Shown here piece by piece: positions 1,493-61,073 of a stretch of 64,000 nt of DNA. Under the pieces are notes generated by a model. That model saw only the letters and a program-made list of their open reading frames with translations, was not told where the DNA came from and searched no databases. Location: assembly GCA_017471445.1 (NCBI GenBank), contig JAFUTJ010000015.1, positions 25,352-89,351 on the forward strand, written 5' to 3'. Position 1 is the first letter of the stretch, and each line of letters begins with the position of its first letter. Position numbers and translations under genes: made by a program. The DNA comes from Alphaproteobacteria bacterium. Lineage in GTDB: Bacteria; Pseudomonadota; Alphaproteobacteria; Rs-D84.

Positions 1493-2236
1493 CTATTTTG
1501 TAACAAAGAACCGCGCATCCCGTGCAATGCCTGGGCGCAACGCCAGAATTAACCGCCACACCTGTTCAATTCTGAATAAATTATTGCCCAATGTAAAATG
1601 AAACGCCCCATTCCACGTTGTCGCAGTATTTAACATACCATAAATTCGTCCCACAAAATCAGACTTACCACCCGTATCGCGAGCCAATGCCAACACAATC
1701 GCATCGGCACGAATCATTGATAAACTATCAAAAACCCGGCCCCAATCCCCAGAACCAATTTCCGATATATCAATACCGACGCATAATTTTTTATTAAAGA
1801 ACAAATCATCACGCACAATATGAATTTGCCGACAAAAAACTGCCAAGTCTGCCATACTTAAAAACACCTGGACACCACATGCACCGGCCTTGAATGCGGC
1901 GTTTGCGTTTATGGCCAATTCTGATATTGCGGCATCCATTGTTGTCGCATCTGTTTTCAGATAAAAACGCGCAAGTATCTGGGGACACTTGTGTTCCAAC
2001 CATGGCCACACAACCGAAATATTTGACGGTGCAACCGATATTAAATCGCACCCCATTTCAACCGCCGATGCCGTGGCGGCCGCCAAATCGCCCCCAGACA
2101 CATCTGATGGCACCCATGCCGCGATACCACCACCAATTTCAGAAAAAATCGTATCAGATTTAATATCTATCATTATGCTTTTTAGTTTATCATAAATATG
2201 ATACAATTGAAACATATGAAAAATAATTTTGAGCAT
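1493..2236 (-). CDS. Hypothetical protein (start uncertain; possibly the internal MIDIKSD start at 2173)
   Basis: 247-aa ORF with coding-like composition that fills the gap between flanking genes. I recognise no motif in it. Confidence 0.45.
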   Translation of the reverse strand: MLKIIFHMFQLYHIYDKLKSIMIDIKSDTIFSEIGGGIAAWVPSDVSGGDLAAATASAVEMGCDLISVAPSNISVVWPWLEHKCPQILARFYLKTDATTMDAAISELAINANAAFKAGACGVQVFLSMADLAVFCRQIHIVRDDLFFNKKLCVGIDISEIGSGDWGRVFDSLSMIRADAIVLALARDTGGKSDFVGRIYGMLNTATTWNGAFHFTLGNNLFRIEQVWRLILALRPGIARDARFFVTK

Positions 2237-3151
2237 ATTTTGTTAGGATTATTATGGTTAATGGCCGCAACATTGGGGGGCTGTTTTTGGTTTAATACAT
2301 ACTTTGGATTTAATATTTTTTCGGTTCAGCATTGGCAATACCTGGGGTATGTTCAGGCAAATCACATTGCAATTAAACCGATGTTTTATATTTCTTTGGT
2401 TGTGGTTGGATTGATATTGATGGGTGGCATTTACTTTATATTGCGCCCACGGATGCGCCGAATTGTTCTGCCTGTGCGTGCGAAACATGATTTTAGCACA
2501 AACGATTCCACGCCACCATTAATGCACAACCCATATGATGGAACCGTAACAAACAATACTGGCCCCATCGCGCCAACATCAGAATTATCACCAACAAAAC
2601 CAAATGTGCCGATAAATACGCATACACCCACAACATTGCGGCCCCCACGCCTGAATATGCCAATCATATCACCAACAAACACGACCACAATACATAATAC
2701 GGCCCCTGCCCCGGCGCAACAGTCGGCGGCCTCGGATACGCCAGACATGTCACCAGACATCGAATCGATTTTTAGCGATAATGGTTATATAATAAAGCCA
2801 AGACCAAGAATCGGTGCCATAAAGACAAGTTTGTTTGCAATTGGTACAGACGATGTTTTATGGGTTGGCGGTTACGCCATTGACGCCGCAAAAATGCAGG
2901 CAGCCGTTGACCAGTTACAGGGTGTGTTTGATGATTTCTTGGAAGATGCAGAAATTGATGTACGCGCATTTGTGGTTGCACCAACCGCCCGCGAAAACGC
3001 AGACCAAGTTATGATATTTAACGACATGAATGATTTACGTGAATATATAACACAAAATCCAAATCCACCACTGGACGCGGATGAACGCGATAACTTTGAT
3101 TCATATTCTGACTTTATAACAACCGTCGCAGAATACATAGGCAAGATATAA
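2198..3151 (+). CDS. Membrane-anchored hypothetical protein with Pro/Thr-rich linker and C-terminal globular domain
   Basis: It has two N-terminal TM segments (LLGLLWLMAATLGGCFWF; FYISLVVVGLILMGGIYFIL), a low-complexity P/T/N-rich stretch, and a C-terminal domain of about 130 aa. Its stop overlaps the next start (TAATG). Confidence 0.5.
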   Translation: MIQLKHMKNNFEHILLGLLWLMAATLGGCFWFNTYFGFNIFSVQHWQYLGYVQANHIAIKPMFYISLVVVGLILMGGIYFILRPRMRRIVLPVRAKHDFSTNDSTPPLMHNPYDGTVTNNTGPIAPTSELSPTKPNVPINTHTPTTLRPPRLNMPIISPTNTTTIHNTAPAPAQQSAASDTPDMSPDIESIFSDNGYIIKPRPRIGAIKTSLFAIGTDDVLWVGGYAIDAAKMQAAVDQLQGVFDDFLEDAEIDVRAFVVAPTARENADQVMIFNDMNDLREYITQNPNPPLDADERDNFDSYSDFITTVAEYIGKI

Positions 3152-3657
3152 TGCAATTAAATAAAAATGCGGCCGAACGTTTAATCGCAGATTTAGGTAT
3201 GGACGACATGCCAATTATGGCCGTGCGCGCCGTACGTGTACCGGTTGCGGGCGATTGGTTTGCACGCTATAAAAATACGGTACGTCAATTCTTGGGGACA
3301 TTGACCGAATGTGTCCAAGAATTGGCATTTATGAATTTAACACAAGATGAATTTATGGAACTGATGATGGGACGGGCGGTGCCACCAAACTTGTCGGTAC
3401 GGTTTCGGATACCATTGGTATGGGGTGGCGATTTAAGTGTTGCAAACATGTTCATGTGTTACACGTTCCCACATTCGCATAATATGGACAGATTTATAAT
3501 TGCACAAACCGGTAATGATATTGTATGGGTACCAAACCCGGCAAAGAAAATCTATCTGCCGACACATACTGCCGGGGGGGGTGATGGCGGAAACGCAACC
3601 GAAGACCGATTGGCACAAATGGCGGCACAAATCGCACAAAACCGCGGAATGGAATAA
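3151..3657 (+). CDS. Hypothetical protein (168 aa)
   Basis: ORF translationally coupled to its upstream and downstream neighbours. No motif recognised. Confidence 0.5.
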   Translation: MQLNKNAAERLIADLGMDDMPIMAVRAVRVPVAGDWFARYKNTVRQFLGTLTECVQELAFMNLTQDEFMELMMGRAVPPNLSVRFRIPLVWGGDLSVANMFMCYTFPHSHNMDRFIIAQTGNDIVWVPNPAKKIYLPTHTAGGGDGGNATEDRLAQMAAQIAQNRGME

Positions 3658-3666
3658 AGGGTAAAC

Positions 3667-4101
3667 ATGACGCTGAATGAATTCTTGATTGATATAAAAT
3701 CACGCGGCGCATTGTTTTGGCCACGCGCGGCAATGCGCGATGTTACGATTGCCGACGCACAATTACAATCACATCGGTGTGCCCGGTTACCCGAATTTAT
3801 GATAAAACTGTATTCTGCAACCGCAGGTATTAATCTGGGCACAGGTTATATTTTTGGTCCAACAGAATTGGTCAAAGGGAACCTTTTTCCTGTGCCATCT
3901 ATTAACCAAATTAACGATGAAATGGTTGGCAACAATGTACTGCGCGGAATGACGATATTTGGGCGCAATGATTTATTTTGGTTCGCATTTGATGCATTTG
4001 GTACATGCTATATGTTGGATAACCTGGGGCTACGACAAATGCGAAAATATGACGACCCGTATCGTGCAATGATGGACTGTCTGGTCGCAGGGAAATATTA
4101 A
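3667..4101 (+). CDS. Hypothetical protein, possible SUKH (SMI1/KNR4)-like immunity-protein fold
   Basis: 144 aa. The LPEFMIKLYSATAGINLG ... FGRNDLFWFAFDAFGTCYMLDN pattern resembles SMI1/KNR4 signatures (LPxDYxxFL...NG ... ia.dg.GnxyclD). This is recognition by eye only. Confidence 0.4.
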   Translation: MTLNEFLIDIKSRGALFWPRAAMRDVTIADAQLQSHRCARLPEFMIKLYSATAGINLGTGYIFGPTELVKGNLFPVPSINQINDEMVGNNVLRGMTIFGRNDLFWFAFDAFGTCYMLDNLGLRQMRKYDDPYRAMMDCLVAGKY

Positions 4102-4104
4102 TAA

Positions 4105-4305
4105 ATGAAAAAACTGTCTGTATCTTTGACCGGTCACCAAACCAGCATTTCGCTGGAACCAGAATTTATTACCGAATTACGAAAAATTGCCGACAAAGAT
4201 AACAAATCAGTCGCAGCAATAATTAACGAAATTGACAGGACACGAAACCGAACAAACCTGTCATCGGCAATACGCGTGTGGATTCTGAAACGGGTTACGG
4301 ATTGA
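4105..4305 (+). CDS. Ribbon-helix-helix domain protein (COG4321-type, often mis-annotated aryl-sulfate sulfotransferase)
   Basis: 66 aa. The motif MKKLSVSLTGHQTSISLEPEFITELRKIA...SVAAIINEID matches the conserved KRSISLsGHkTSISLEdeFW signature of this alphaproteobacterial RHH family. Confidence 0.7.
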   Translation: MKKLSVSLTGHQTSISLEPEFITELRKIADKDNKSVAAIINEIDRTRNRTNLSSAIRVWILKRVTD

Positions 4306-26844: not shown

Positions 26845-27525
26845 ATGGCATACATGTGGAACGAATTCAATATAAAACCAATACGTGCGGAAACAATTGT
26901 TTACCGCGATGGTGTATTTTTACCAGACGTGTCAACAATTGAAAACGGGCCAATTAACCGTAAATATGGATTGCCGGTACATGTTATTTATGTTGGTGAA
27001 ATTACCGGCGAAAATGCATTAAATATTGAAATAAACATTGAAAACCAACCGGTGTTTTTATCGGTAAACATAACAAATAAAACACCAACAATTTTTAATA
27101 TTTTTGTAAAAAATACCGGTAAAAAATCTGACTTTCGCGCGCACGTAATGTTAAATAATTCGGGTGAATTAAATTACCAATGCACGGCGCACCACACGGC
27201 CCCAGAAACAACAATTTTATTTCAGACAAAATTAATTGCCAACCGCGATTCAAAATCTAAAATTGCCGGCACGGCAATAATTGATAAAAATTGCGATGAT
27301 TGTATGTCCGACATCGGGTTTACCGCAATGGCAGACCGTTCGGCAAAAATATCATTTTTACCGGCCCAACGAATATTATCTGTACCACAACGGGCCGACC
27401 ATGGTGCGGCAATATACCGCCCAACCGATGCCCAGGTTTTATATTTGCGTGAATCCGGCCTATCCGGGGCAGAGGTTGATGATACCATGAAAGTGGCGTT
27501 CATGAACGATTTCGATTTATTCTGA
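26845..27525 (+). CDS. SufB/SufD-family protein (short, stand-alone)
   Basis: The C-terminus PTDAQVLYLRESGLSGAEVDDTMKVAFMNDF resembles the conserved SufB/SufD C-terminal helix (eQLFYLrSRGisEeeA...). No sufBC genes are adjacent. Confidence 0.45.
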   Translation: MAYMWNEFNIKPIRAETIVYRDGVFLPDVSTIENGPINRKYGLPVHVIYVGEITGENALNIEINIENQPVFLSVNITNKTPTIFNIFVKNTGKKSDFRAHVMLNNSGELNYQCTAHHTAPETTILFQTKLIANRDSKSKIAGTAIIDKNCDDCMSDIGFTAMADRSAKISFLPAQRILSVPQRADHGAAIYRPTDAQVLYLRESGLSGAEVDDTMKVAFMNDFDLF

Positions 27526-28449
27526 TTCCCGCCCATAAATAAATTCACTGGTACCGGAATTTTGGTGGAATTTTTGTTCCATCATGTCCCACATACCGTT
27601 ACTGGGCACCGTGTAATCGCCGATTCGTAATCCCGCCGGCACCGGAACCATGGTACGAATAATATCGTTAGAACGGCTGATGGTTATATCATATAGTTTT
27701 GCGATTGTTTTTGTATCACTGCTCGGATGAAGTAAAGTTATATTCTTGTCATTACCGTCAAAGTCAAAATAATTTATGTTTCTTACAACATCATCAAATA
27801 TAATATATCCAGAATTATTATAATTAAACATCAATGTGTATTTGTGATTCATAACAAGTTCATTAACCGATAATACCGGATTAGAATAACCAGAACCAGG
27901 CCCATAACCACAGGTAAATAACGTAACCCCATTATTGGTTCCACAATAAAAATGCGGGGAATATGTCGCAAATATTGGCGATGCCAGTTCGGTCAATTGA
28001 ATATATGCAAAATGCGTTTTAACGCCAACATTGTTTGCAGGGACAACATTTGTGCGAATTAATTGTTCACCGCTTGATTGAATATACACATCTGGGTCGG
28101 CATTAATCAGTTTACCGCCCGCAATTGTGTACCATGGACTGTAATCTGCGTGTAATACAATGTCGTGCGTATATGCGTACGGAATTGTTGTATTTGATGT
28201 AATAATTGTGTCACTGTCACCCACACGCCATGCGGGCGCATTGTTACAACCAACACCGGTTGTAAAGTTATTACCATACGCGGTGCTTTGTTGTGTTGGG
28301 GCATTCCCACCCGCCGGACAATCGTATGTTACGGTATATTGTTTCGGTATACAGAACTTTACATTTTCTGGTAATTCGGCATTTGCATTTGCCCAGAACA
28401 ACATCAAACCAAACAACACAGAAAACAACGATGATAATTTGTGTGTCAT
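27517..28449 (-). CDS. Secreted protein, family B paralog 1
   Basis: It starts at MTHKLSSLFSVLFGLMLFWANANA (signal peptide). Residues 1 to about 115 are nearly identical to 45659-46630. The rest is homologous but diverged (PHFYCG, FNYNNSG.IIFD, VPxGLRIGxYxVPxNGM, IYGR). Confidence 0.75.
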   Translation of the reverse strand: MTHKLSSLFSVLFGLMLFWANANAELPENVKFCIPKQYTVTYDCPAGGNAPTQQSTAYGNNFTTGVGCNNAPAWRVGDSDTIITSNTTIPYAYTHDIVLHADYSPWYTIAGGKLINADPDVYIQSSGEQLIRTNVVPANNVGVKTHFAYIQLTELASPIFATYSPHFYCGTNNGVTLFTCGYGPGSGYSNPVLSVNELVMNHKYTLMFNYNNSGYIIFDDVVRNINYFDFDGNDKNITLLHPSSDTKTIAKLYDITISRSNDIIRTMVPVPAGLRIGDYTVPSNGMWDMMEQKFHQNSGTSEFIYGRESE

Positions 28450-28690
28450 ATCTTTTTTTCCTCCCTGTTCCTTTATTTTTTCTAATAAAAAATATCCCAC
28501 GCGAAAACCGCAGTGGTTGGAGGTTCATAACTACAATAAGGTATAGCGGGCCTATTCAATATATTCAGCACCCCTCCAACCAAATTTAGATTGGAGATTT
28601 ACTATCGCCGCCCATACGGCAATACCTTATTTCAGGGTTATGACGCCCCAACACGTGCGAACACGCGTCGCGATAATATTAAATCATATT
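28450..28690 (-). promoter_or_regulatory. Conserved 5' leader of family B genes (copy 1) with long hairpin GGTTGGAGG...CCTCCAACC (28515-28581)
   Basis: Immediately upstream of the ATG, 74 nt are identical to 45585-45658. A 9-bp inverted repeat encloses about 50 nt. Further upstream similarity extends to the GCGACG...TGGGGCGTCA block. Confidence 0.45.
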
Positions 28691-31574: not shown

Positions 31575-32171
31575 TTAAATCATACACGCCAATGCCGCCG
31601 ATGTATTCTTTAACATAAACCAACCAATGCGGTAATCGGTTATATAAATTGTCGCCATGAACAATGCCAATATTGCAATAATTACAACCACATTTGCACG
31701 CCGACCACGCATGCAATATACCGATATGTTATAGAACAAGAACAACACATACGCATCGGCAATCATGCTGATAATCCACATGCTGGTGCAATTAAAGGCA
31801 AATGCGTTCAACACCAAAATCATCGGGTACATAAAGAACACAGATGCCAATCCCTTGACCGCGATTTCCCAATCACGTTCACCGCCGGTTATTTCCGATA
31901 CAAACATTAACAGTCCCGCCATCACAAACAACAACGCAACCGCCACAACCGGTGTTATAATAATCGCGGTAAAAAGTCCAGAAAGTGTTATACTGGCCCC
32001 GCCAATAACGCGTAATATCAATACCAACACGCCGCCAATCAACCCATATAAAAATGCACGAAACATCGAATCATCCAGGTTTCCATCGGCAACAATTTTT
32101 GTGAAATAGCGACGTGGATTAACCAAAACATCGCGAACGTGTTTCCATGCGTTTGTTAGTTTCTTTTTCAT
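31575..32171 (-). CDS. Yip1-family membrane protein (putative)
   Basis: 198 aa with five predicted TM helices. The N-terminus NPRRYFTKIVADGNLDDSMFRAFLYGLIGG is typical of the Yip1/DUF1282 family. Confidence 0.45.
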   Translation of the reverse strand: MKKKLTNAWKHVRDVLVNPRRYFTKIVADGNLDDSMFRAFLYGLIGGVLVLILRVIGGASITLSGLFTAIIITPVVAVALLFVMAGLLMFVSEITGGERDWEIAVKGLASVFFMYPMILVLNAFAFNCTSMWIISMIADAYVLFLFYNISVYCMRGRRANVVVIIAILALFMATIYITDYRIGWFMLKNTSAALACMI

Positions 32172-34664: not shown

Positions 34665-35372
34665 TTAGAGAGTTTTTACAATCGCGTCAACGGTTTTCTG
34701 TGGAATCATACTTATTTCCCCAACCGGTAAATTTCCCAATTCAATCGGCCCAAACGAAATACGGTGTAATTTACGCACCGGACACCCCACACTGCGCAGG
34801 ACAATCCTGACCTCGTTCTTTTTGCCTTCGGTAATTTTGACGCGTAAATTATTTTCACCAATAACATCTATCTGCATTGGGCGGTATTTTATACCGTCAA
34901 CCGTAATACCATGGCGCGCCCGGTTCAGACCGTCGGCATTAATCGCGTTTACAGTTGCAATATATACACGCGGAATATTTGCCGTCGGCAATGTTAATTT
35001 GCGTGCCAATTCACCATTGTTGGTCATTAATAATAATCCCGTTGTCCGATAATCCAATCGCCCAACATAACGCAGGTTTCTATATTCATCACCCAAACAA
35101 TCATATATCGTTTTGCGTCCCATTGGATCACGGGCGGTTGTCATAACATTTAACGGCTTATGAAACATATATAAACGTGTTTCGTCTGGTGACGTAATTA
35201 CAGTACCATCAATTGTCACCGTATCAGATTGTGTGACAAAATGCACCGGCGAATTAATTATTACACCATTTATTGCGACACGCCCCGCGGAAATCATTTC
35301 TTCGGCAACACGCCGCGATGCCGCACCACATTCTGATATAAATTTTGCGATACGTACATTCATTCGTTGCAA
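34665..35372 (-). CDS. rRNA pseudouridine synthase (RluB/RsuA family, S4 domain + PseudoU_synth_2)
   Basis: N-terminal S4 domain MRIAKFISECGAASRRVAEEMISAGRV. Catalytic region LVGRLDYRTTGLLLMTNNGELA carries the conserved Asp. Confidence 0.8.
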   Translation of the reverse strand: MQRMNVRIAKFISECGAASRRVAEEMISAGRVAINGVIINSPVHFVTQSDTVTIDGTVITSPDETRLYMFHKPLNVMTTARDPMGRKTIYDCLGDEYRNLRYVGRLDYRTTGLLLMTNNGELARKLTLPTANIPRVYIATVNAINADGLNRARHGITVDGIKYRPMQIDVIGENNLRVKITEGKKNEVRIVLRSVGCPVRKLHRISFGPIELGNLPVGEISMIPQKTVDAIVKTL

Positions 35373-36016
35373 ATCCTGTCAATTGCAATTACGGCGGCCA
35401 ATTCTGCGCGTAATATGTTATGCCCCAACGATATTCCATGCGCGCCGCATTTGTCCAATGTCATAAATTCCGCATCGGAAAGCCCCCCCTCGGGTCCGAC
35501 CAATATATTATTTGATTGCATGCGTTGTGGTAAATCGCGCCCACGCGACGCACGTTCATCGGCAAAGACAATGTTTGCATGGTCTAAATCACCAAATTGT
35601 ATGGTGTCGGAAATTTCTGGAACCGTGTTGCGATTTGATTGTTCTGATGCCTCTATCACGATGCGGTGCATACGTTCCCAATTTATATTCTTGGCAACAG
35701 TGTGTTCGGTTATAACCGGAATAAACCGGGAAACACCCATTTGCGTTGCCATGTTTAATAATTCATCGGTCTTTTTTATTGGTGCAAAGTATAATGTTAT
35801 ATCGCGCATAACGTCGCCATGGTTTGTTTTGTCACCAATAAAGAACATTTTCCCATCATCAGAAATTGTTGCATAAAATTCATTACCGCCACCAAACGCC
35901 AAAAATTCCCGCCCACGCATTACACGCGTTAAATAATGCGCAGCATCGCGCGGTGCTGGTATTTTTATACCCGCCGCCACATCATTTCCAACAAAGATTC
36001 GCGGAATATTTTTCAT
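35360..36016 (-). CDS. rsmE: 16S rRNA (uracil1498-N3)-methyltransferase
   Basis: It starts MKNIPRIFV... The C-terminus has the RsmE signature ILVGPEGGLSDAEF. The ORF track begins earlier, at 36055, but that would leave only 6 nt before the divergent virD4 start. Confidence 0.85.
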   Translation of the reverse strand: MKNIPRIFVGNDVAAGIKIPAPRDAAHYLTRVMRGREFLAFGGGNEFYATISDDGKMFFIGDKTNHGDVMRDITLYFAPIKKTDELLNMATQMGVSRFIPVITEHTVAKNINWERMHRIVIEASEQSNRNTVPEISDTIQFGDLDHANIVFADERASRGRDLPQRMQSNNILVGPEGGLSDAEFMTLDKCGAHGISLGHNILRAELAAVIAIDRICNE

Positions 36017-36061
36017 ATGGGCCTTGGTAATATTTCGTTTTTCTGATATAATCATAAAGCA

Positions 36062-38296
36062 ATGGCAGAGAAATTCAAGATTTTATCAGCGGGCGGTTCA
36101 TCCAAGGGCCTGAATATATTCAAGTCCGATGCCTATAAAGAGCACGAGCGCAAGCCCATGGCCCAGATTTTCTGGTCGCTGCGCTGGGCAATTGGTATAT
36201 GGCTGGCGGCCGCGGCGGCATTTTGTCTGGCCTTTATTGCGGAACATTTCTGGCGATACGGTTTTTCACCTGCATCATGGCGATGGGCGGGGTTATATAT
36301 GCGTGGTGTCATTATGACGTGCGGATTATCGGTCGTTGCCGAAATACCCGCGTGGATAACGCGCAGTATTGTTCGTGCCGATTTTGCCTGTATCGCACCA
36401 TTGTTGCCAATAATTGCGTATTATTTCCTGTCTGATAAAACATTGACCGGTGAATTTAACCCGTATGGCAAAGATAAATTTGACGAAAAATCATCAAACA
36501 AGGCAACCGCCGACGATATTAAGAAAATGGGTAAAGGCAAAGAAGGACTATTTGCCGGGTTTATGATGGTACTGGGATATTTCAAAAAAAAGCCGTTGAT
36601 GATGGATGAATGCCTGTCTGCATTGTGTGTTGCCCCCCCGGGAACCGGTAAAACCCAGGCTGTGTGCATCCCCACAATCTTGGAATGCAATAATGTTTCA
36701 ATGATTATCAACGACCCAAAACCGGAATTAAAACAAAAAACAAGTGCATATCGCGCAACCGTTGGACCGGTATTTATAATGAACTGGGCGGGCCAAGATG
36801 ACCCAGAACGCGGCGTTTATTATCCGTCGTGGAACCCGCTGTCGCCCGAACATGTTCCGTTTAACCAAGAACAACGCGACCTGTATATCGATTCAATTTG
36901 TAATGTATTGGTGCCGGACGCAACGGGGTCATCCGCCGACCCACACTGGACAATTTCTGGACGGGCGGCGTTATCAGGTATGATTCAATTCATCGTATCA
37001 AAAATTGAACGCGCCAAGGCAGATGATTATTTCTTTGCGCGTATGCAATCAGGCGAATTTAATTCCGAAGACGCAACCGTTTTACAGGATTATTATCTGT
37101 CTATGCGTGACGACCCGAACGCATATGCGGCGTTGGCAATGCTGCAACGCGGGGAATTGAATGCAACAAATTATGTACATGTTGGAACATGGGCAAATAT
37201 TCCAGACGCATGGTTAGGCAAAGAATCATCGTTATCTATGATACTGGACTGGTTAAATGCGGCGCAATTGGCCAACGCCCAAGAATTGGAAGAACGCCGC
37301 CGCGCCGGTGACCAAATGGTTATGATGGCCGACCCAATGAAAGATGTTTTGGAAAACGCCGTGAACGAGGCACGTCGTTATTCATACGCGCACCGCGCAG
37401 TTTTGGAATTAACACAACTGGCAAACACACCAGATAAAGAACGCGGTTCTATTTTATCAACCGTTATGGCGGGGTTATCAATATTCCGTAATGCCGCGGT
37501 TCGTAACCGGACCAGTCATTCTGACTTTCACTTTGCAGACTTACGCGGTCTGCGCGACCCACGCGACGGAAAAATTAAGCCAGTTACGGTGTACCTGTCC
37601 ATTAACATGGTCGATGCCGAGGCGTTAAACCCAATTACCGGTATATTTATTGAATTAATGTCATCTTTCTTGTTGGCCAATGCACCAGAACAAATGCGCG
37701 ATGGCGTACGCATGGGGCCATACCCGGTGTTATTTGTATTGGACGAAATGCCCAAAATGCAAAAGTTACAAGCGGTGATTCAGGGACCCGACCTGGGGCG
37801 TGGGCAACAGATTTCATACCTGATTATCGGCCAGGATTTACACCAGATTCAAGAAAAATATGGTGCAGATGCGGCGGCAACAATTATCTCTACCACTGCG
37901 GCAAAAATTGTTCTGCGACAAAACGACCCAGATTCTGCCAAACGATTTTCAGATATGATGGGTTATAAAATGAAAGTCAAAAAGGTCAAGGGTGCCGACG
38001 GCAAAGAAACCGAACAAACCGGTGAAGAATTATTATATTCACCAATGGATATTATGAAGTTGGATGATAACAAACAACTGGTTATATTCCAGGGATGGTA
38101 CCACCGCCCGATAGAGGCAGAAAAACGCTATGCATACAAAGATGCGAAATTGGCGCAATTTATGTCCATGGGTGAATCAACACCATTACCAGAATTTTTG
38201 ATACCATCGCATCATGCGGCAATGGGATATGACGGTACGCCACGCGTATATAACCCAATGACACACGAAATACGCATGGTTAATGTCGGTGGCTAA
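36062..38296 (+). CDS. virD4: Type IV secretion system coupling protein (VirD4/TraG family)
   Basis: It has two N-terminal TM helices, Walker A (VAPPGTGKTQAV) and Walker B (VLFVLDEMPKM), and is 744 aa. The first ~150 nt use noticeably GC-richer codons (aag, ctg, gag) than surrounding genes. Confidence 0.85.
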   Translation: MAEKFKILSAGGSSKGLNIFKSDAYKEHERKPMAQIFWSLRWAIGIWLAAAAAFCLAFIAEHFWRYGFSPASWRWAGLYMRGVIMTCGLSVVAEIPAWITRSIVRADFACIAPLLPIIAYYFLSDKTLTGEFNPYGKDKFDEKSSNKATADDIKKMGKGKEGLFAGFMMVLGYFKKKPLMMDECLSALCVAPPGTGKTQAVCIPTILECNNVSMIINDPKPELKQKTSAYRATVGPVFIMNWAGQDDPERGVYYPSWNPLSPEHVPFNQEQRDLYIDSICNVLVPDATGSSADPHWTISGRAALSGMIQFIVSKIERAKADDYFFARMQSGEFNSEDATVLQDYYLSMRDDPNAYAALAMLQRGELNATNYVHVGTWANIPDAWLGKESSLSMILDWLNAAQLANAQELEERRRAGDQMVMMADPMKDVLENAVNEARRYSYAHRAVLELTQLANTPDKERGSILSTVMAGLSIFRNAAVRNRTSHSDFHFADLRGLRDPRDGKIKPVTVYLSINMVDAEALNPITGIFIELMSSFLLANAPEQMRDGVRMGPYPVLFVLDEMPKMQKLQAVIQGPDLGRGQQISYLIIGQDLHQIQEKYGADAAATIISTTAAKIVLRQNDPDSAKRFSDMMGYKMKVKKVKGADGKETEQTGEELLYSPMDIMKLDDNKQLVIFQGWYHRPIEAEKRYAYKDAKLAQFMSMGESTPLPEFLIPSHHAAMGYDGTPRVYNPMTHEIRMVNVGG

Positions 38297-38310
38297 GGAT
38301 GCGTTGGTAA

Positions 38311-39567
38311 TTGAGACAGCATATAACCATCTTGTTCGCGTTAATATTGTCTGCATGCGGCGCATCTTTTGAAATGCGCATGGATGTGGCGCGCCATGCA
38401 ACATTGACCGGTGATTTCGCCACGGCAAATGAATTTGCGGCCAATTCCGATGTTTCCAATATGAATGATTTGGAATTATTGGTAACGGGCGGTGCATTAT
38501 TTAATATGGGAAATTATTCCGCATCGGATGCCGCGTTCGAAGAATTTAACCACCGCAATATTAACATGACCGGATTTTCTGTGTCACGTGAAATGGCAAC
38601 TGTTTCCGGTGGTGCAATGGCCGCCCAATACCGGCCGTATATGATGGATTCACTGTTCGTGTCGTATTACCAGATTTTAAGTGCACTGGCCGAAAACCGG
38701 TGGTCGGATGCACGTGTAATAATAAATCAATCGTATGCGCGGCAACAAAAAATGTCGCGTGAATATAAACAATTACTGGCCAATCGGAAAAACGACACCG
38801 CCACAGCCGCACAATTGGCCGAAAATATTCGTAATGAAAATTCACAATGGGCGGCATATGCCGATATAATGAACCCTGCATTAACATATTTGGCGGGTAT
38901 TTATTTCTTGGCCGACCACGATTGGGCAAATGCAGAAACATACCTGGGACGGGCAGATGGTATGACGCAAAACACCCAATGCATTGCAACAGATTTATCA
39001 ATGGCCCGCGCCAAGACCGCACCACATGACAACACATGGGTATTTATTGAAACCGGTATTGCCCCACGGTTAACAGAACGCCGCATAACCATACCATGGA
39101 TTGTTGGCAACGGCATGTCAATGATATCAATTGCAACCGCAACACCAAAATTTACAAACGATACAACGCGCATATCGGGCGGCGAATTAATCGCAGACAT
39201 TGATAAAATGTTTATGACAGAATTTAATGAATACAGCGTAAATAACGCCATACGCGCGGCAATTGGTGCCGCCGCACGCGCTGTATTACAATCGGTTGCA
39301 TATAATGGCAATTCACGTTATTCGCCGTTGTTTGGATTGGGGGCAACAATATTTTCGGTTGCAACCACATCGGCCGATGTGCGTTCGTGGGCAACATTAC
39401 CCGAATATATATATGTAATGCGCACGGATACACCAAAAAGCGGCTTGCTTGAAATAAAAGCAAATGGTAATGTGATTGCAAACGTACCAATGCCGAATGC
39501 CGGTAATCACATCGTATATATACGCGTTGGCGTAAACACGACCGCACACGTTATGGATTTAAGATAA
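38311..39567 (+). CDS. Lipoprotein, uncharacterised (possibly the COG3014-type protein often encoded next to LpoB)
   Basis: Lipobox LSAC in MRQHITILFALILSACGASF. 418 aa. It starts 14 nt after the virD4 stop. Confidence 0.55.
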   Translation: MRQHITILFALILSACGASFEMRMDVARHATLTGDFATANEFAANSDVSNMNDLELLVTGGALFNMGNYSASDAAFEEFNHRNINMTGFSVSREMATVSGGAMAAQYRPYMMDSLFVSYYQILSALAENRWSDARVIINQSYARQQKMSREYKQLLANRKNDTATAAQLAENIRNENSQWAAYADIMNPALTYLAGIYFLADHDWANAETYLGRADGMTQNTQCIATDLSMARAKTAPHDNTWVFIETGIAPRLTERRITIPWIVGNGMSMISIATATPKFTNDTTRISGGELIADIDKMFMTEFNEYSVNNAIRAAIGAAARAVLQSVAYNGNSRYSPLFGLGATIFSVATTSADVRSWATLPEYIYVMRTDTPKSGLLEIKANGNVIANVPMPNAGNHIVYIRVGVNTTAHVMDLR

Positions 39568-39591
39568 CAAGATAAAAAAAGGAGAAAAAAT

Positions 39592-40206
39592 ATGAACAAA
39601 CTAAAACACATTATGCCCTGTGCCCTGTGCCTTGCATTATGTGCATGTGGTGAAACACGGGTTGTTGACTTGAATAACCAGGCCGATGTTGAATCAATGC
39701 AACACGTTATGGAATTGGAATATCGTGACTGGGAAAACGCCGCGACAAAAATGACCGATTCTATGTTAAAAAGTGGCGCATTCGCCCGTGTTGCCAATCC
39801 GGTAATTGCGATTGATGATATAAAAAATGATACTATGCAACGTATTGATACCGATTTGTTGGTTAAAAAGATTCGTAAAACCATCGTAAATTCGGGTCGC
39901 GCACAAATTGCGACAACATTCACCGGCGAAGAAACCATGTCTAATAAAATGCGCGCCATGCGTGGCAACAGTGAATACAACGCATCAACAATTGCAGAAC
40001 AAGGAACCCTGGTTGCACCGAATATAAGTTTATCTGGCAAAATGATTCAGCGTAACCTGAATCTGAAATCCGGCTGGTTCAGTAATGTTGACACCCGTGT
40101 TGAATATTATATGCAATTAACATTAACCGACCTGAAAACGGGACTCTCAATCTGGGAAGAAGAAGAGCCGATTGTCAAAGAAGGGGACCATGCGCCAACC
40201 TGGTAA
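39592..40206 (+). CDS. LpoB-like lipoprotein (COG3417, penicillin-binding protein activator family)
   Basis: Cys-containing signal peptide. DWENAATKMTDSML matches the E. coli LpoB block DWNGAMQPMVSKML. The C-terminus YYMQLTLTDLKTGLSIWEEEE matches LQMQLMLVQTGEIIWSGKG. Confidence 0.5.
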   Translation: MNKLKHIMPCALCLALCACGETRVVDLNNQADVESMQHVMELEYRDWENAATKMTDSMLKSGAFARVANPVIAIDDIKNDTMQRIDTDLLVKKIRKTIVNSGRAQIATTFTGEETMSNKMRAMRGNSEYNASTIAEQGTLVAPNISLSGKMIQRNLNLKSGWFSNVDTRVEYYMQLTLTDLKTGLSIWEEEEPIVKEGDHAPTW

Positions 40207-40214
40207 AGTAATAT

Positions 40215-40243
40215 AAAAAACACCGGCAAATGCCGGTGTTTTT
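40215..40243 (+). terminator. Bidirectional rho-independent terminator (AAAAACACCGGCAAATGCCGGTGTTTTT)
   Basis: 7-8 bp GC-rich stem flanked by an A-run and a T-run. It lies between the convergent LpoB-like and PAP2 genes and shares its stem sequence with the terminator at 31532. Confidence 0.5.
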
Positions 40244-45439: not shown

Positions 45440-45658
45440 TTGATGCGACGTATTGTCGCATTGGGCGTCAGAACCCATAGAGGTGTCGGGATTACACCGA
45501 CAATTAAAATTCCAGCCGGCTATTTATCGGTTGGAGTGTGTGGAATATTTAGAATAACACACGCAATTCCTCTAATTGTTCTGAAGCTCCAACCACTGCG
45601 GTTTTCGCGTGGGATATTTTTTATTAGAAAAAATAAAGGAACAGGGAGAAAAAAAGAT
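45440..45658 (+). promoter_or_regulatory. Conserved 5' leader of family B genes (copy 2) with hairpin GGTTGGAG...CTCCAACC (45529-45594)
   Basis: The 74 nt before the ATG are identical to copy 1, and the upstream GCGACG...TGGGCGTCA block is shared. It contains the RBS GGAACAGGGAG. Confidence 0.45.
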
Positions 45659-46630
45659 ATGACAGGCAAATTATCATCATCGGTGTTTTATGTGTTGTTT
45701 GGTTTGATGTTGTTCTGGGCAAATGCAAATGCCGAATTACCAGAAAATGTAAAGTTCTGTATACCGAAACAATATAGGGTAACATACGATTGTCCGGCGG
45801 GTGGGAATGCGCCAACACAACAAACCACCGCGTATGGTAATAACTTTACAACCGGTGTTGGTTGTAACAATGCGCCCGCATGGCGTGTTGATGACAGTGA
45901 CACAATAATTACATCAAATACAACAATTCCATACGCATATACGCACGACATTGTATTACACGCAGATTACAGTCCGTGGTACACAATTGCGGGCGGACGG
46001 CTGATTAATGCCGATGCGGATGTGTATTTAAACAACAATCTTTCTGCATACGCATCATATGGCATTGATACGGGTGTAATGTCCACAAATAATATCGGAT
46101 GGGCAATTAATTTTACATATGAACAATTCAGAAATAGCGAAACACCAGAACATATTATTGGAACAATGTTCCCACATTTTTATTGTGGAATTGATACGGC
46201 CCATACTGGTTTTCTTTGCGCCTGTGGCCCAGAGGCCGGTTATGGAAACGGCATTGAAAACTACACAAATATGATTGTCGGCAAAAAATACAATCTGTTA
46301 TTTAACTATAATAATTCTGGCAAAATTATTTTTGATTACACGACCAATCTTGATTTATCGTGCACAGAATTGAATAACACGATTGGTAACACAATACGTT
46401 TGTTTCGTTCAACATCACAAAACGTAAATGCAACCAGCACGAATAATTATAGCATGGCAAAAATATATGATGTAAAAATCAGCGATGGCCAAACAATGAT
46501 TCGTAATTTTGTGGCGGTACCGTCGGGTCTGCGCATTGGTAATTATATCGTTCCAAAAAACGGCATGTTTGATATTGTTGAACAGAAATTTTATCAACCT
46601 GTTGCGAATATGATATATGGGCGCGATTAA
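45659..46630 (+). CDS. Secreted protein, family B paralog 2
   Basis: The start is at MTGKLSSSVFYVLFGLMLFWANANA (ATG at 45659, RBS GGGAG). The ORF-track start at 45440 is an in-frame upstream extension through the leader. The N-terminal 115 aa are nearly identical to paralog 1. Confidence 0.75.
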   Translation: MTGKLSSSVFYVLFGLMLFWANANAELPENVKFCIPKQYRVTYDCPAGGNAPTQQTTAYGNNFTTGVGCNNAPAWRVDDSDTIITSNTTIPYAYTHDIVLHADYSPWYTIAGGRLINADADVYLNNNLSAYASYGIDTGVMSTNNIGWAINFTYEQFRNSETPEHIIGTMFPHFYCGIDTAHTGFLCACGPEAGYGNGIENYTNMIVGKKYNLLFNYNNSGKIIFDYTTNLDLSCTELNNTIGNTIRLFRSTSQNVNATSTNNYSMAKIYDVKISDGQTMIRNFVAVPSGLRIGNYIVPKNGMFDIVEQKFYQPVANMIYGRD

Positions 46631-49095: not shown

Positions 49096-49453
49096 GCCCA
49101 GATATAAAATGGAATTTTACAATTATAAGAAAACACTTATATACCGCTAAGAACTAAACGACTTGCTTTTTTTGGTATCTTTCACAATAATAGTAAATGA
49201 ATCCAATGGGAATTGGGTTTGGGGCATTAGCGTGCCCGTTTGCATCCGGTGCGATTGCGTCGTTAAAAAAATATATTTTACAACACTTTTGCACCGAATT
49301 TTGTCATTGTTCCCCGAACGTTGGTCTGGGGTGCCGGTGGTTATACAACAGGTTTCTAAACCAAAGGCCATCCGGGTCATTGATGCAAATGATACGCTAA
49401 CACCCCGACCATCAATTTCCGTTGATGGTTTTTATTTTTTTATGGGGGAAATT

Positions 49454-50332
49454 ATGAAAAAATTTATTCTTATTTTGATATGCATGAACATAACACTGCC
49501 ATGCTTTGGCAAATTTAAAATACAAGACAGCAATTCATGCGTTATTGATACATATGGGCGCAATAAGTATTGGTTCTGTGGGTCAACAAATAAAACAAAA
49601 TGTGGCTCTACAACATTCTCTCGCGATAATCGCGAAGCACGTGATATGACACATGGCGAAGTTGTAACAGATTATCGCGCACGTGGTACGCATGACCATT
49701 ATAATTTGTTATGTTGTGTGGTTGATGGCAAGGGATTCTTTAAGTACACAACCAAGAGCAAGGCGAAACCAGCCGAATTAAAAAATGAATACATATCGGA
49801 AAATATTACAATTAAAACAGACGAAGGCGGATCATGTACATATGTTAAAACCGTTGATACATGCGGCAATATTATTTCTGATATACCATGCACCGCACGT
49901 GACGACTGTCAAAGCGATGAAATTGTTCGTAATAAAAAATGTGTTAAACCATGCACAGAACCATTGGTGTTTTTTTCGCCAGATGTTGATACATGTGTTA
50001 ATTGTGAAGAAACAAATTACCAAGGTATCGCAATGGACAGCCAAGGCCACAAATATTGCAAAAAATGTGCAGACAACGAAATATGGTTAAAAACCAAAAA
50101 AGACTGTGTAAAAAAAGAAACTTTGACCATTGTGAACAAGGTTGATATGCAAAGATGTTGGCAATGCAAAAGCGTTGATTCATTCAGAAAATGCGCACTG
50201 GGCGAAGATGTTACATGCGGGTCATCTGCATCAACCGGCACAGAGAAAAACAAGCAAACAATACCAACACCAACACTGAAACGTGTTGAAACGGGCCCAA
50301 TACAAAATCTGGGCAAAGTAATTCCGTTTTAA
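49454..50332 (+). CDS. Secreted cysteine-rich hypothetical protein (292 aa)
   Basis: Starts MKKFILILICMNITLPCFG with RBS GGGGGA. It has about 30 Cys, many in CxxC pairs (CVNCEE, CKKCAD, CWQCKS). The ORF-track start at 49163 is an upstream in-frame extension. Confidence 0.6.
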   Translation: MKKFILILICMNITLPCFGKFKIQDSNSCVIDTYGRNKYWFCGSTNKTKCGSTTFSRDNREARDMTHGEVVTDYRARGTHDHYNLLCCVVDGKGFFKYTTKSKAKPAELKNEYISENITIKTDEGGSCTYVKTVDTCGNIISDIPCTARDDCQSDEIVRNKKCVKPCTEPLVFFSPDVDTCVNCEETNYQGIAMDSQGHKYCKKCADNEIWLKTKKDCVKKETLTIVNKVDMQRCWQCKSVDSFRKCALGEDVTCGSSASTGTEKNKQTIPTPTLKRVETGPIQNLGKVIPF

Positions 50333-55015: not shown

Positions 55016-55181
55016 TTATTTTCCCTTTCTTTTTATCGTGAAAAACATAGCAATTTCTGCTATAATTATCAAGAAAATTTATGATTTTGGATTGCCGTTT
55101 TCTGATTCATAATTTATGCAAGCAATGAAGCCGGAAATCCAAAACCAAGCCCCAGGAATAACATACAAAGGATTTATAAAC

Positions 55182-55751
55182 ATGAAGTTTAAGTTACTGT
55201 ATTTTGGCGATATTTATATCAACCCCAAAAAACGTGCCCAACATATTTCTGATATTCGGATGCAATTTCATCCGCAATTAAAAAAATTGGTGGAACACAG
55301 TCCGTGGAATAACCTGACACAATTTATGATGCCCAACCCAACCAAAAGCCCCATTACAACCAAACACGTCGGTGGCATCGACTGGAACCCGATTATAACG
55401 CCGAACCTGAAATTAATTGCGGAATTAGATATTCAGATGTTACATCCGGAAATTGTTGGCGTGTCACGGTCTGATATTGACAACCGCATAAAAACATTGT
55501 TTGACGGCCTGCGCGCACCACAAAACGAACACGAAATCGGCGAAAATACACCACGTGATATTGGGCCAATTTATACGTTACTGGACGATGACCATTTGAT
55601 AACGAAACTGTCGGTAAATACATCGCACCTGTTATCATCTGATATGTTTTCATGCGACATTCCACGCAGCCCAGATTCAATATTTATGATGATTGACGTT
55701 AATGTCCGCGTTGCAGAGGGAACATTAGAAAACCTGCCGTTTATGGTATAA
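55182..55751 (+). CDS. Hypothetical protein
   Basis: 190-aa ORF from MKFKLLYFGDIY, with an upstream in-frame extension to 55116. No recognisable motif. Confidence 0.4.
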   Translation: MKFKLLYFGDIYINPKKRAQHISDIRMQFHPQLKKLVEHSPWNNLTQFMMPNPTKSPITTKHVGGIDWNPIITPNLKLIAELDIQMLHPEIVGVSRSDIDNRIKTLFDGLRAPQNEHEIGENTPRDIGPIYTLLDDDHLITKLSVNTSHLLSSDMFSCDIPRSPDSIFMMIDVNVRVAEGTLENLPFMV

Positions 55752-55829: not shown

Positions 55830-56900
55830 CTAATTAAACATTGCCGTTATTTGGTCTTGCATTTGGAATGTACCGAATATTACCCATGCGATTATCAATG
55901 ACACTAATATAATTCCAATATTATTTAATGCAGATGACACCGCGTCCATTTTGCGCACAGATTCATCCAAGTAATCATTTGCAATGCGGGTTAAATTCTG
56001 GTCAAAATCTGTCATATCTGCGTATATTTCCAAATCACCAATAATTTCGGAATTTGGAAACCCGCGCCCGGTGCCATTTAACGCCGACCCCAAGTTTTCA
56101 CCATTTGCAATTCGTCGCAGTGTGGCATCCAATATTGACCGTAAATACCGGTTGGAATTATCGGCCAACATGCGCATTGCATCGGGCAATGTAATACCCG
56201 CCGCAACCAATGCCGCCAACCCGGTCAACCAACCGACCGATTCCTGAATCTTGTATATATTCCATGGTGGCAAATCGTCAAAGCGCGCACGCATTTTACC
56301 CGACCAATTTGGTAAACTGAATGCGATAATCAAAACCAGCGTCACAAACCCGATTGCAATTATATACCAATATGCCCCGGCAAAGTTTGACACCCATACC
56401 AAAGATGCGGCCACGCCACGCCACGCGATATTATTGCCTGCAACCGCGGCCAATGGCGGCACCAAATAAATTCCAACCATTATTATTATCGCGATTGTTA
56501 ATGCAAACAAAAACAACGGGTACGCAACCGCCCCCATAAATGCCCGCCGTATGCGACCAATGCCACCCACCATGCGTTCCAGGTTTTCCAACGCAACAAC
56601 CAAACTGGAAATATTCCCCGATGTCAGCAGCAGTGTTTCATTCGGTGCCATCCACCCGCGGGTGGCATCAGAAAAACTCATCCCGCGTTCCAGATTCTTT
56701 TGCCATTGACGCATAACAATTGCAAATGGTTCATGTGGATTTTTTCCACCGTTTGATTCAATCCGTTCAATCCGCCCCAGCGCATCCATCAATGTAAAAT
56801 CGTTCCGCAACAGCGATGCCAGTTTTCGCGCAACAGACATACGCTTGTTCGTGTTCATACGAAACACCAACCGCGCATAAGATAATTCCAGGCGGTTCAT
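55830..56900 (-). CDS. Type IV pilus/T2SS inner-membrane platform protein (GspF/PilC/TcpE/BfpE family)
   Basis: 356 aa with three TM helices and T2SSF-type repeat architecture. It lies directly downstream of the PilB/GspE-family ATPase. Confidence 0.7.
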   Translation of the reverse strand: MNRLELSYARLVFRMNTNKRMSVARKLASLLRNDFTLMDALGRIERIESNGGKNPHEPFAIVMRQWQKNLERGMSFSDATRGWMAPNETLLLTSGNISSLVVALENLERMVGGIGRIRRAFMGAVAYPLFLFALTIAIIIMVGIYLVPPLAAVAGNNIAWRGVAASLVWVSNFAGAYWYIIAIGFVTLVLIIAFSLPNWSGKMRARFDDLPPWNIYKIQESVGWLTGLAALVAAGITLPDAMRMLADNSNRYLRSILDATLRRIANGENLGSALNGTGRGFPNSEIIGDLEIYADMTDFDQNLTRIANDYLDESVRKMDAVSSALNNIGIILVSLIIAWVIFGTFQMQDQITAMFN

Positions 56901-56901
56901 A

Positions 56902-58539: not shown

Positions 58540-58542
58540 TTT

Positions 58543-59253
58543 TTATTTTGTACTGGCAATATTCAAGGTTTGCTTTTTACCGTCTTTCTCAAAAACGACA
58601 CCTTCGTCCAAAGATATCGATTTTACGGTAAACCCATCCAAGGTGCGACCAACACTTACACGTTTGTTTTGGCCAGAATCCATATCTGCCAATGTTGCCT
58701 GTAATTGATTACCGGCACCAATTACGTTTACTAATTTATATTTATCAACAATCTTGAATTCGTCTGTATCTTCTTCGGCCGCGGTGGATTTTGCGCGCGA
58801 TGCAGATGTACGCACCGGTGCAGTGGCCGGCTTTACATCACCCGACATCAGGTTTTGTTTTTCCAATTCCAATTTCGCCGTTTCGTTTTCTAATTTTGCC
58901 TTTTCCATTTCGAATTCTTGCTGCTGCTGTTCGGCCCGGCCAGACAGCGTATCAATTTCCATATGCAATTTTATTTTTTCTGCGGCCAAGCGGTCCAATT
59001 CCAAATCCAACTGGGCACGTTCTTTTTCCAATTGCATTAATATTTTTTCTTGTTCCAAATCTGTAATTTGTTGAAACAGTGAACCCGATACATCATAATC
59101 TGCAACCGCCGCCGCAGATGGGTCAACCACATCTGATTCAACCAGGTCATCGGTCAATAAATCTGCATCATCTGCCGCGTACACGCATGGCGCGACAATT
59201 GTGAATATGCCGAAAACCATTGCCATAAAAAATAATTTCTTGTTATTTTGCAT
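58543..59253 (-). CDS. Secreted coiled-coil protein with PilP/GspC-HR-like C-terminal domain (putative pilus assembly component)
   Basis: Signal peptide MQNNKKLFFMAMVFGIFTIVAPCVYA. The central region is a coiled-coil rich in E, K and L. The C-terminus YKLVNVIGAGNQLQATLADMDSGQNKRVSVGRTLDGFTVKSISLDEGVVF follows the PilP/GspC pattern. Confidence 0.45.
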   Translation of the reverse strand: MQNNKKLFFMAMVFGIFTIVAPCVYAADDADLLTDDLVESDVVDPSAAAVADYDVSGSLFQQITDLEQEKILMQLEKERAQLDLELDRLAAEKIKLHMEIDTLSGRAEQQQQEFEMEKAKLENETAKLELEKQNLMSGDVKPATAPVRTSASRAKSTAAEEDTDEFKIVDKYKLVNVIGAGNQLQATLADMDSGQNKRVSVGRTLDGFTVKSISLDEGVVFEKDGKKQTLNIASTK

Positions 59254-60502: not shown

Positions 60503-60587
60503 GATTCTCTCTCTATCTTAAAAATCTATGGCAATTATAACACAAAAATATAAACCTTGGCAAACCATTTAAGTGGTATGCCAAAGA

Positions 60588-61037: not shown

Positions 61038-61073
61038 CTTGTTTTCCTCCTGTATCAACACAAACCAATTACA

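Follow-up and report, generated by a model that had tools for sequence, protein, structure and literature searches.

A core VirD4-type coupling protein gene of 'Candidatus Enterousia', its facultative lipoprotein neighbours and its probable place in a dispersed type IV secretion system

Our analysis concerns a 64,000-nt stretch of alphaproteobacterial DNA (contig JAFUTJ010000015.1 of assembly GCA_017471445.1, forward-strand positions 25,352 to 89,351; hereafter the window), and in particular a VirD4/TraG-type coupling protein gene that is followed on the same strand, after gaps of 14 nt and then 24 nt, by two lipoprotein genes (Table 1). The sequence belongs to the core chromosome of 'Candidatus Enterousia' (order Rs-D84) and carries der, rluB, rsmE, secDF, gyrB, topA, mrdA and others. 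A first-pass annotation of this sequence proposed that a type IV secretion system (T4SS) ATPase is here coupled to a gene resembling an activator of peptidoglycan synthesis. If true, this would tie secretion to cell-wall synthesis in a new way. The three-gene layout and the identities assigned to the coupling protein and the two lipoproteins all hold, but comparative genomics lends the functional coupling no support.

Table 1. Positions of the coupling protein gene, its neighbours and its candidate partner genes in the window. T4CP, type IV coupling protein; ORF, open reading frame; X', Y' and Z' are the window counterparts of the sister-clade proteins X, Y and Z described in the text.
Feature	Position	Strand	Basis
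X', membrane protein	2198..3151	+	X profile, E = 1.9e-8; similarity mainly in the Trp-rich N-terminal transmembrane region
Y', homologue of Y	3151..3657	+	Y profile, E = 1.1e-17; reciprocal tblastn matches to Y genes
Z', SUKH/SMI1-KNR4-type	3667..4101	+	Z profile, E = 1e-8
Ribbon-helix-helix ORF, 66 aa, 3 nt after Z'	4105..4305	+	PF13467 (RHH_4)
rsmE, at the head of the rsmE-rluB-TPR block, which always diverges from the T4CP gene	35360..36055	-	ORF and synteny
Promoter-like TTGGTA-17-TATAAT with upstream TG, 9 nt before the T4CP ATG	36024..36052	+	consensus match only
T4CP, VirD4/TraG-type, 744 aa	36062..38296	+	Pfam and NCBIfam matches, family profile, conservation
Lp418 lipoprotein, 418 aa, TTG start, TPR-like N-terminal and beta-rich C-terminal domain	38311..39567	+	lipobox LSAC, AlphaFold2 model
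LpoB-family lipoprotein, 204 aa	39592..40206	+	PF13036, TIGR02722; NCBI name LpoB
GC-rich hairpin, 12-bp perfect palindrome flanked by A and T runs	40216..40243		3' of the LpoB-like gene

Type IV coupling proteins (T4CPs) are inner-membrane, hexameric-type ATPases that select substrates for T4SSs. The product of the first gene matches T4SS-DNA_transf (PF02534, E = 1.3e-50), TraG-D_C (PF12696, 8.5e-19) and TrwB_AAD_bind (PF10412, 1.8e-17), and both Walker motifs are intact, with Walker A (APPGTGKT) near residue 190 as read from the translation and Walker B (LFVLDE) at 557. Across 23 members of the family, K197 of Walker A never varies, and G194, G196, T198 and D561 hardly do. Hydropathy predicts an N-terminal membrane anchor, with hydrophobic 19-residue segments starting at residues 35-45, 81, 101 and 105. 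The protein reaches the cut-off of no curated NCBIfam T4CP subfamily (Ti VirD4, IncP TraG, F TraD, CD1115 and others); CD1115 comes closest, with 142.8 of the 250 bits required, and the rest fall far below theirs. Among solved structures the family profile finds distant matches in Cag5/Cagβ (8DOL, 4.5e-13), DotL (4e-4) and TrwB (6e-4).

Relatives of this T4CP were collected from 302 stretches of species-representative genomes, and the Enterousia counts below refer to the best 80 of these 302, which are 'Ca. Enterousia' or gut alphaproteobacterial metagenome-assembled genomes (MAGs), chromosomes of 716 kb and 958 kb among them. Every one of the 80 species has a full-length ORF (728-749 aa) at 71-81% identity, compared with 45-63% for rsmE and 45-70% for rluB, and it diverges from the rsmE-rluB-TPR block in every locus that reaches that far upstream. 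Because it is full-length in 80/80 species and more conserved than the products of this block (45-70%), the T4CP gene appears to be a strongly constrained, vertically inherited core gene. Taken as ORFs, the two divergent genes start 6 nt from each other; the distance grows to about 45 nt if rsmE begins at the conserved internal MKNIPRIF, which is probably its true start. Beyond this set, a deep search reaches full-length relatives at 47-51% and at 30-40% identity.

Two small features of the 5' region may be recorded here. The T4CP mRNA would be nearly leaderless if the promoter-like site of Table 1 were used, and such sites are no commoner in the window than in shuffled sequence. In codons 5-8 (TTC .. 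ATT TTA), synonymous sites are almost invariant across the 80 species.

The first-pass annotation had noted a GC-rich start of virD4 and had taken it as a hint of a foreign or recombined 5' end. The first part stands: GC content at third codon positions (GC3) is 0.66 over the first 50 codons, in the top percentile of 1741 such 50-codon segments, and 0.464 over the whole gene, where genes average 0.386 (sd 0.037). The peak in the first 150 nt, the excess over surrounding genes and the scores below all curated subfamily cut-offs are what one would cite for a recent foreign insertion, a degraded remnant of a conjugative element or a recombined 5' end. In 75/76 species, however, the T4CP gene has a higher GC3 than rsmE, rluB and the TPR gene, and its GC3 tracks the GC content of the locus (r = 0.96). 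Over the 80 species the mean 5' GC3 is 0.54 versus 0.44-0.52 in later blocks, the first 30 residues are 81% conserved and synonymous variation is ordinary. The raised GC3 is a stable, genus-wide trait of the gene that does not point to recombination, and because the excess is found genus-wide the second part of the claim is unsupported. Wherever sequence extends, moreover, the intact gene occupies the same locus opposite rsmE, and neither an integrase nor a relaxase nor a tRNA gene adjoins it. Locus constancy, conservation and genus-wide GC3 thus effectively refute a foreign origin, which we consider very improbable.

We turn to the two genes downstream. The 204-aa protein covers the full PF13036 model (positions 1-147 of 147, E = 1.6e-33), scores 131.9 bits against the 110.55-bit cut-off of the LpoB equivalog TIGR02722 and has a lipobox, LALCAC (LCAC), in its N-terminal signal, so that its earlier description as LpoB-like is borne out; pairwise, the match to E. 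coli LpoB (2MII) is marginal (E = 0.42 over 67 aligned residues). As an LpoB-family member it is possibly linked to peptidoglycan synthesis. As for a partner, the window contains PBP2 (mrdA) and rodA only, and no class A penicillin-binding protein with a UB2H domain of the PBP1B kind was found in it. The 418-aa lipoprotein, Lp418, matches nothing in Pfam or NCBIfam. Its AlphaFold2 model has pLDDT 81.7 and pTM 0.83, and in Foldseek it retrieved generic TPR proteins only, none at E<1e-3 and none a convincing PDB counterpart. Homologues of Lp418 were seen in Enterousia-type contigs only, and a literature search on COG3014 and COG3417 turned up nothing useful. Separately, an LpoA-like lipoprotein gene adjoins rsmI at 5635-7254 on the minus strand (LppC PF04348, 4.9e-10; Peripla_BP_6), so that the window of this alphaproteobacterium holds both an LpoA-family and an LpoB-family lipoprotein.

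Co-transcription of the three genes in this genome is plausible, because there is no terminator-like site between them on the plus strand, Shine-Dalgarno-like sequences (AAGGA and AGGAG) precede the second and third genes and a hairpin follows the third. This hairpin is likely a bidirectional terminator that would end both the three-gene unit and a convergent PAP2 gene.

Close packing of genes in one genome can be deceptive, however, as the adjacency is found in only about one quarter of the related species. The lipoprotein pair follows the T4CP gene in 20 of the 80 Enterousia species and is absent from that place in 58, two loci being too short to judge. It is missing near the T4CP gene in all 86 loci outside Enterousia, of which 84 belong to sister lineages (gut 'Azospirillum sp. 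CAG:260 / 47_25'-type MAGs) and two are more distant. Where the pair is lacking, unrelated convergent genes come directly after the T4CP stop codon. The pair is patchily distributed on a UPGMA clustering (unweighted pair group method with arithmetic mean) of T4CP sequences, with the most divergent clusters included. Because it occurs in 20/78 informative species and 0/86 outside loci, the adjacency appears lineage-specific, and the simplest reading is that it arose within Enterousia and was then repeatedly lost. The T4CP thus has no need of the adjacent pair.

These counts bear on the suggestion that the pair encodes outer-membrane T4SS parts, VirB7-like or pilotin-like, which in pair-bearing species would be co-expressed with the T4CP for that reason. 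Both proteins are indeed lipoproteins, their genes always lie immediately 3' of the T4CP gene on the same strand with very short gaps and no internal terminator, their presence in the most divergent clusters means that the adjacency may be ancestral there, and recognisable VirB7, VirB9 and VirB10 were not found in the lineage. Yet the position is empty in 58/78 species with an intact T4CP, among them the one (locus L010) that has VirB3-VirB4 near its T4CP gene, and the pair is missing near the T4CP in every sister-clade locus. The 204-aa protein, moreover, scores above the equivalog cut-off for a family of peptidoglycan-synthase activators, and the Lp418 model resembles TPR proteins only generically. 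We judge a T4SS role for the pair unlikely. Most likely it is an independent envelope module, and the juxtaposition of T4CP and LpoB-like genes is most likely incidental synteny. Of the two alternatives offered by the first-pass annotation, T4SS-associated lipoproteins or a virD4 gene beside a separate lipoprotein operon, the second is closer to the evidence, and the proposed coupling itself loses its footing, with the pair present in 20/78 and 0/86 loci and the T4CP intact in 80/80 species.

The first-pass annotation was also right that the window has no virB or tra genes, as judged from Pfam scans of its unannotated ORFs and from tblastn with VirB3, VirB4, VirB9, VirB10 and VirB11 probes, whose sole match there is that of VirB11 to a pilus-type T2SSE ATPase at 57.4-57.7 kb. 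The 10 kb to the left of the window hold housekeeping genes only. The T4CP gene nevertheless appears to stand alone only locally, with conserved candidate partners 32 kb upstream at 2198-4305.

These partners were recognised through the sister clades, in which the gene order is X-T4CP-Y-Z, with X directly upstream and Y directly downstream of the T4CP gene. X is a membrane protein of 365-433 aa, Y has about 200-370 aa and Z about 145-165 aa. Among the 84 sister-clade loci, many of which are too short to include downstream genes, X was found in 75, Y in 34 and Z in 22. We built hidden Markov models of X, Y and Z from sister-clade loci alone, with no window sequences, and searched them against the 351 ORFs of the window. 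Each profile has a single match, and the three matches are consecutive ORFs in the same order, X', Y' and Z' (Table 1). Z' itself has no direct Pfam match. The ribbon-helix-helix ORF that follows is probably the last gene of the X'Y'Z' operon.

In X, a Trp-rich membrane anchor of two helices is combined with a Pro-rich linker and with a NERD-like domain in the cytoplasm (NERD PF08378 matched by 7/16 members, best E 2.5e-5). X' aligns to positions 3-187 of the 313-position X profile; its GDWLADEE block is missing and its NERD-like C-terminal domain is degenerate. Y has no direct Pfam match, although two unannotated PHROGs are matched by 16/18 members and tblastn aligns Y with the C-terminus of a 628-aa protein of SPbeta-like Bacillus phages. 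That phage protein is an LXG polymorphic toxin (LXG, 1.5e-57) with a SUKH gene next to it, and its C-terminal domain has a weak, below-cut-off similarity to Pfam HNH (E = 0.0017). In profile comparisons with hhalign, Y aligns to residues 492-625 of the LXG toxin spr_26 of phage SPR (98.7%, E = 2.6e-16) and Z to its SUKH neighbour spr_27 (96.9%, 1.4e-10). Z members also match SUKH_5 (9/14) and SMI1_KNR4 (8/14) directly.

Because Y and Z align to an LXG toxin domain and to its SUKH neighbour, respectively, the Y-Z pair appears to descend from an HNH-type toxin/immunity pair. The catalytic residues tell a less simple story. The toxin has 'VHHKLP', sister-clade Y proteins have one His and then a hydrophobic residue at that place, and Y' has 'VRFRIP'; later His residues of Y' are out of register with the toxin, and the catalytic His-His/Asn/His set is lacking. 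Nuclease activity of Y is thus doubtful, above all for Y'. A single-sequence AlphaFold2 model of Y' was unusable (pLDDT 35.6).

In one sister clade the module is part of an eight-gene cluster that adds U94 (weakly similar to DUF6476), U361, U476 and a short X paralogue upstream of X (L084, 5227-8629; equivalents in up to 47 sister-clade loci). U361, U476 and U94 have no homologue in the window and no Pfam assignment. We also considered a defence-system role for the T4CP and X, Y and Z, and rejected it: PADLOC was negative apart from a weak match of the T4CP to mad8 (5.2e-7), its models matched none of X, Y, Z, U361 and U476, and the core-gene behaviour of the T4CP speaks against such a role.

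T4SS channel genes were found in relatives. The best plasmid relative of the T4CP (30% identity), on p1 of Sphingosinicella, lies in a canonical conjugative VirB9/VirB10/VirB11-T4CP cluster with a MobA relaxase, and the proteins of this cluster served as VirB probes against 2.9 Mb of sequence. Its 806-aa VirB4 candidate matches one Enterousia locus, L010 (31% identity, E = 3e-117), about 5.6 kb from the T4CP gene. There VirB4 is confirmed by Pfam, VirB3 scores 21.6 bits, just below the cut-off of 23.9, and the GC3 of the VirB3-VirB4 genes equals that of the T4CP gene and of ychF, as expected of native genes. The exact-sequence clusters of these two proteins count 52 and 28 members, the 52-member one at >=90% identity. 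The two genes also occur on chromosome-scale contigs of 697,490, 469,295 and 832,583 bp, equal in size to contigs that bear the T4CP gene; on three long contigs they form an operon VirB3-VirB4-205aa-219aa between rpmJ and ychF/dnaG/topA/rodA/mrdA. Related Enterousia thus have dispersed chromosomal T4SS genes. At the ychF-adjacent site of the window, a different gene takes the place of VirB3/B4. The first-pass annotation had reasoned that a full virB cluster elsewhere with a virD4 of its own would make this virD4 a pseudo-copy; VirB3-VirB4 do lie elsewhere in related Enterousia, but the virD4 gene is no pseudo-copy.

Two neighbours of these operons deserve mention. A 247-aa ORF beside the L010 VirB4 gene was considered as a T4SS part and set aside, as it encodes a lipoprotein with an HExxH motif and shows no clear tie to a T4SS; homologues occur near the T4CP gene in three sister-clade loci. 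In related Enterousia the VirB3-VirB4 operon is preceded, at a distance of about 3 kb, by a block of HipA/HTH, a faintly DUF87-type ATPase, two proteins of no recognised family and an N6/N4 DNA methylase (L176-L178, 109-7040), which may be a defence or toxin-antitoxin islet.

Because relatives carry a VirB3-VirB4 operon elsewhere on the chromosome, we read the window T4CP as most likely a piece of a dispersed T4SS, and its joint action with a VirB4 apparatus is suggested by analogy with those relatives. In full, the reading we favour, with moderate confidence, is that of a functional coupling ATPase that would be the core T4CP of a dispersed T4SS, with the X'Y'Z' partners 32 kb away and the lipoprotein pair as a bystander. 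The T4CP would recruit substrates at the inner membrane and hand them to a VirB4-powered channel. Candidate substrates would be Y, alone or in complex with Z, or DNA that the nuclease-like partners have processed. X' would be the T4CP's partner in the membrane, and Y'-Z', of toxin-immunity descent, would serve as substrate, adaptor or regulator. The lipoproteins would be an independent envelope module that shares the T4CP transcript in this lineage.

An important caveat to this interpretation is that several observations weigh against it. A VirB gene was found neither in the window nor in the 10 kb to its left, and VirB3 and VirB4 are the only channel proteins seen in the relatives, with VirB6, 8, 9, 10 and 11 not seen; a T4SS in this organism is thus extrapolated from its relatives. 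Within Enterousia, X', Y' and Z' are known from this window alone, and the degenerate catalytic motifs of X' and Y' make their activity uncertain. The lipoprotein pair, wherever seen (20 loci and two further look-ups), comes directly after the T4CP gene, a constant linkage that is compatible with a functional link in pair-bearing species, and its absence was scored at the T4CP position only.

The wider T4CP family is relevant to a further alternative. In L168, L169 and L173 (35-39% identity), housekeeping genes surround the T4CP gene, X, Y and Z are absent, and no T4SS genes were found in the flanks that were read. A GC-rich relative at 47% identity has a pilin-like gene upstream and a lipoprotein gene downstream. 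It appears, then, that chromosomal T4CPs of this family recur with changing partners. One recurrent two-gene unit has a pentapeptide-repeat protein of 330-409 aa encoded directly upstream of the T4CP, its gene overlapping or abutting (L168, 8772-10001; L169, 9006-9998; L173, 4227-5429). Genes whose products begin like type IV pilins (a Gly followed by Glu at +5 and a hydrophobic helix) lie near the T4CP gene in L172 (9503-9958, directly upstream), L086 (16975-18141), L002 (19211-19711) and L154 (16278-16841).

The T4CP could instead be a true orphan in this organism, exapted together with X'Y'Z' for a job that needs no T4SS, such as transport of DNA or of a toxin-derived protein through the inner membrane, or nuclease-linked DNA surveillance or uptake. 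With the exception of L010, no T4SS genes lie within 10 kb of the T4CP gene in the sampled lineages, the pairing of distant chromosomal relatives with a pentapeptide-repeat protein would fit a channel-independent core function, the partners have nuclease-related domains of NERD and HNH type, and the window lacks the VirB3/B4 operon that relatives have beside ychF. Against this, the VirB3-VirB4 genes of related Enterousia lie on the chromosome, match it in composition and are highly conserved (the 52-member cluster), known defence systems are unmatched save for the weak mad8 similarity (5e-7), and we know of no T4CP that works without a channel. We regard an orphan T4CP as improbable and retain the dispersed T4SS as the preferred reading.

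What is new here is modest and lies in the X-T4CP-Y-Z module and in the dispersed T4SS genes of a reduced-genome gut lineage. 'Ca. Enterousia' is uncultured and widespread, and its genomes of <1 Mb keep the T4CP gene, some members also having VirB3/VirB4, which suggests machinery for cell-cell interaction as a core function of a genome shorn of most metabolism. The T4CP's unannotated partners (NERD-like membrane, HNH-toxin-derived and SUKH proteins) are candidate substrates or adaptors. The Rs-D84 lineage has been described as genome-reduced, with a proposed partner-dependent lifestyle (PMC12306168), and the literature on Enterousia and Rs-D84 yielded nothing published on secretion systems or T4SSs. 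A bolder proposal, which we offer as tentative and rather doubtful, is that X-T4CP-Y-Z is an undescribed, vertically inherited T4SS accessory module of Enterousia/Rs-D84 and the CAG:260-type clade. It would hard-wire the T4CP to a domesticated HNH-toxin/SUKH pair and a NERD membrane protein, and in these genome-reduced, probably partner-dependent gut bacteria would serve to attack neighbouring cells by contact or to acquire DNA and nutrients from them, with the lipoprotein pair perhaps an outer-membrane element in some Enterousia.

Other features of the window were noted in passing. A type IVb-pilus-like cluster at 55830-61061 on the minus strand, between gyrB and lpxC/lpxK, follows the R64 thin-pilus gene order and encodes a 157-aa lipoprotein, a PilO-like protein (PF06864, 2e-10), a 236-aa protein of no recognised family, T2SSE (8e-66) and T2SSF (3.5e-22); neither a secretin nor a pilin was seen in it. 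Secreted Cys-rich proteins with CxxGxY.. repeats, such as 'ATCDAGYYLSNGRCITC' and 'AANCPANFYL', are encoded at 4450-5343 and 12404-13207, both on the minus strand. A 779-aa protein with similar repeats is encoded beside a sister-clade T4CP module (L086, 13546-15885, minus strand), and none of the three has a Pfam match. ORFs of 200-400 aa with no Pfam match at E<=0.01 lie at 1493-2236, 27517-28500, 31575-32171, 45440-46630, 49163-50332, 55116-55751 and 11337-12338; some of these Pfam-less ORFs could be unrecognised components of T4SS machinery.

Comparison with known systems places these genes in context. The window T4CP shares Pfam domains, an N-terminal membrane anchor and Walker A/B motifs with VirD4, TraG, TrwB and Cagβ, and its best plasmid-borne relatives, about 30% identical, come from Alphaproteobacteria. 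Its gene, by contrast, belongs to the chromosomal core of a reduced genome and, unlike that of the Sphingosinicella plasmid homologue, does not lie beside relaxase or VirB genes. The LpoB-like protein shares with E. coli LpoB (YcfM), an outer-membrane lipoprotein that activates PBP1B, a lipobox, scores above the PF13036 and TIGR02722 cut-offs and a DWxxAxxxMxxxML block, but its linker is short, with about 25 residues between lipobox and globular domain. To our knowledge, characterised LpoB proteins are gammaproteobacterial, whereas the host here is an alphaproteobacterium.

For the partner genes, a comparable layout is that of Legionella DotM-DotL (icmP-icmO), in which a membrane partner is likewise encoded just upstream of the T4CP. 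However, the T4CP profile meets DotL at only 4e-4, X has a NERD-like domain, and the X profile finds no DotM in the PDB (best match TatB, E = 0.027). We thus reject a DotM-DotL relation in favour of an architectural analogy only. Y-Z has the same order as spr_26/spr_27 of the Bacillus SPbeta-type phage SPR, toxin domain and then SUKH. Unlike an LXG toxin, Y lacks LXG or any other known delivery domain, is conserved across clades rather than polymorphic, and has its gene beside that of a T4CP, whereas it is type VII secretion that LXG toxins rely on.

Two T4SSs offer the broader parallels. In the bacteria-killing T4SS of Xanthomonadales, VirD4 recruits toxic effectors, which are paired with cognate immunity proteins. 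The likeness lies in a toxin-derived protein and an immunity-type partner genetically tied to a VirD4-type T4CP; the differences are that neither an XVIPCD recognition domain nor a full VirB cluster was seen here and that Y may be catalytically inactive. In the rvh T4SS of Rickettsiales, virB/virD4 genes are scattered around a reduced alphaproteobacterial chromosome, and hallmarks are duplicated VirB4/6/8/9 and a virB8-11-virD4 linkage. Compared with rvh, only VirB3, VirB4 and the T4CP are seen in Enterousia. The likeness is one of gene layout, a reduced alphaproteobacterial genome with small T4SS islets among housekeeping genes, and in the Enterousia relatives there are two such islets: VirB3-VirB4 with the two unassigned genes between rpmJ and ychF, and the T4CP gene beside rsmE.

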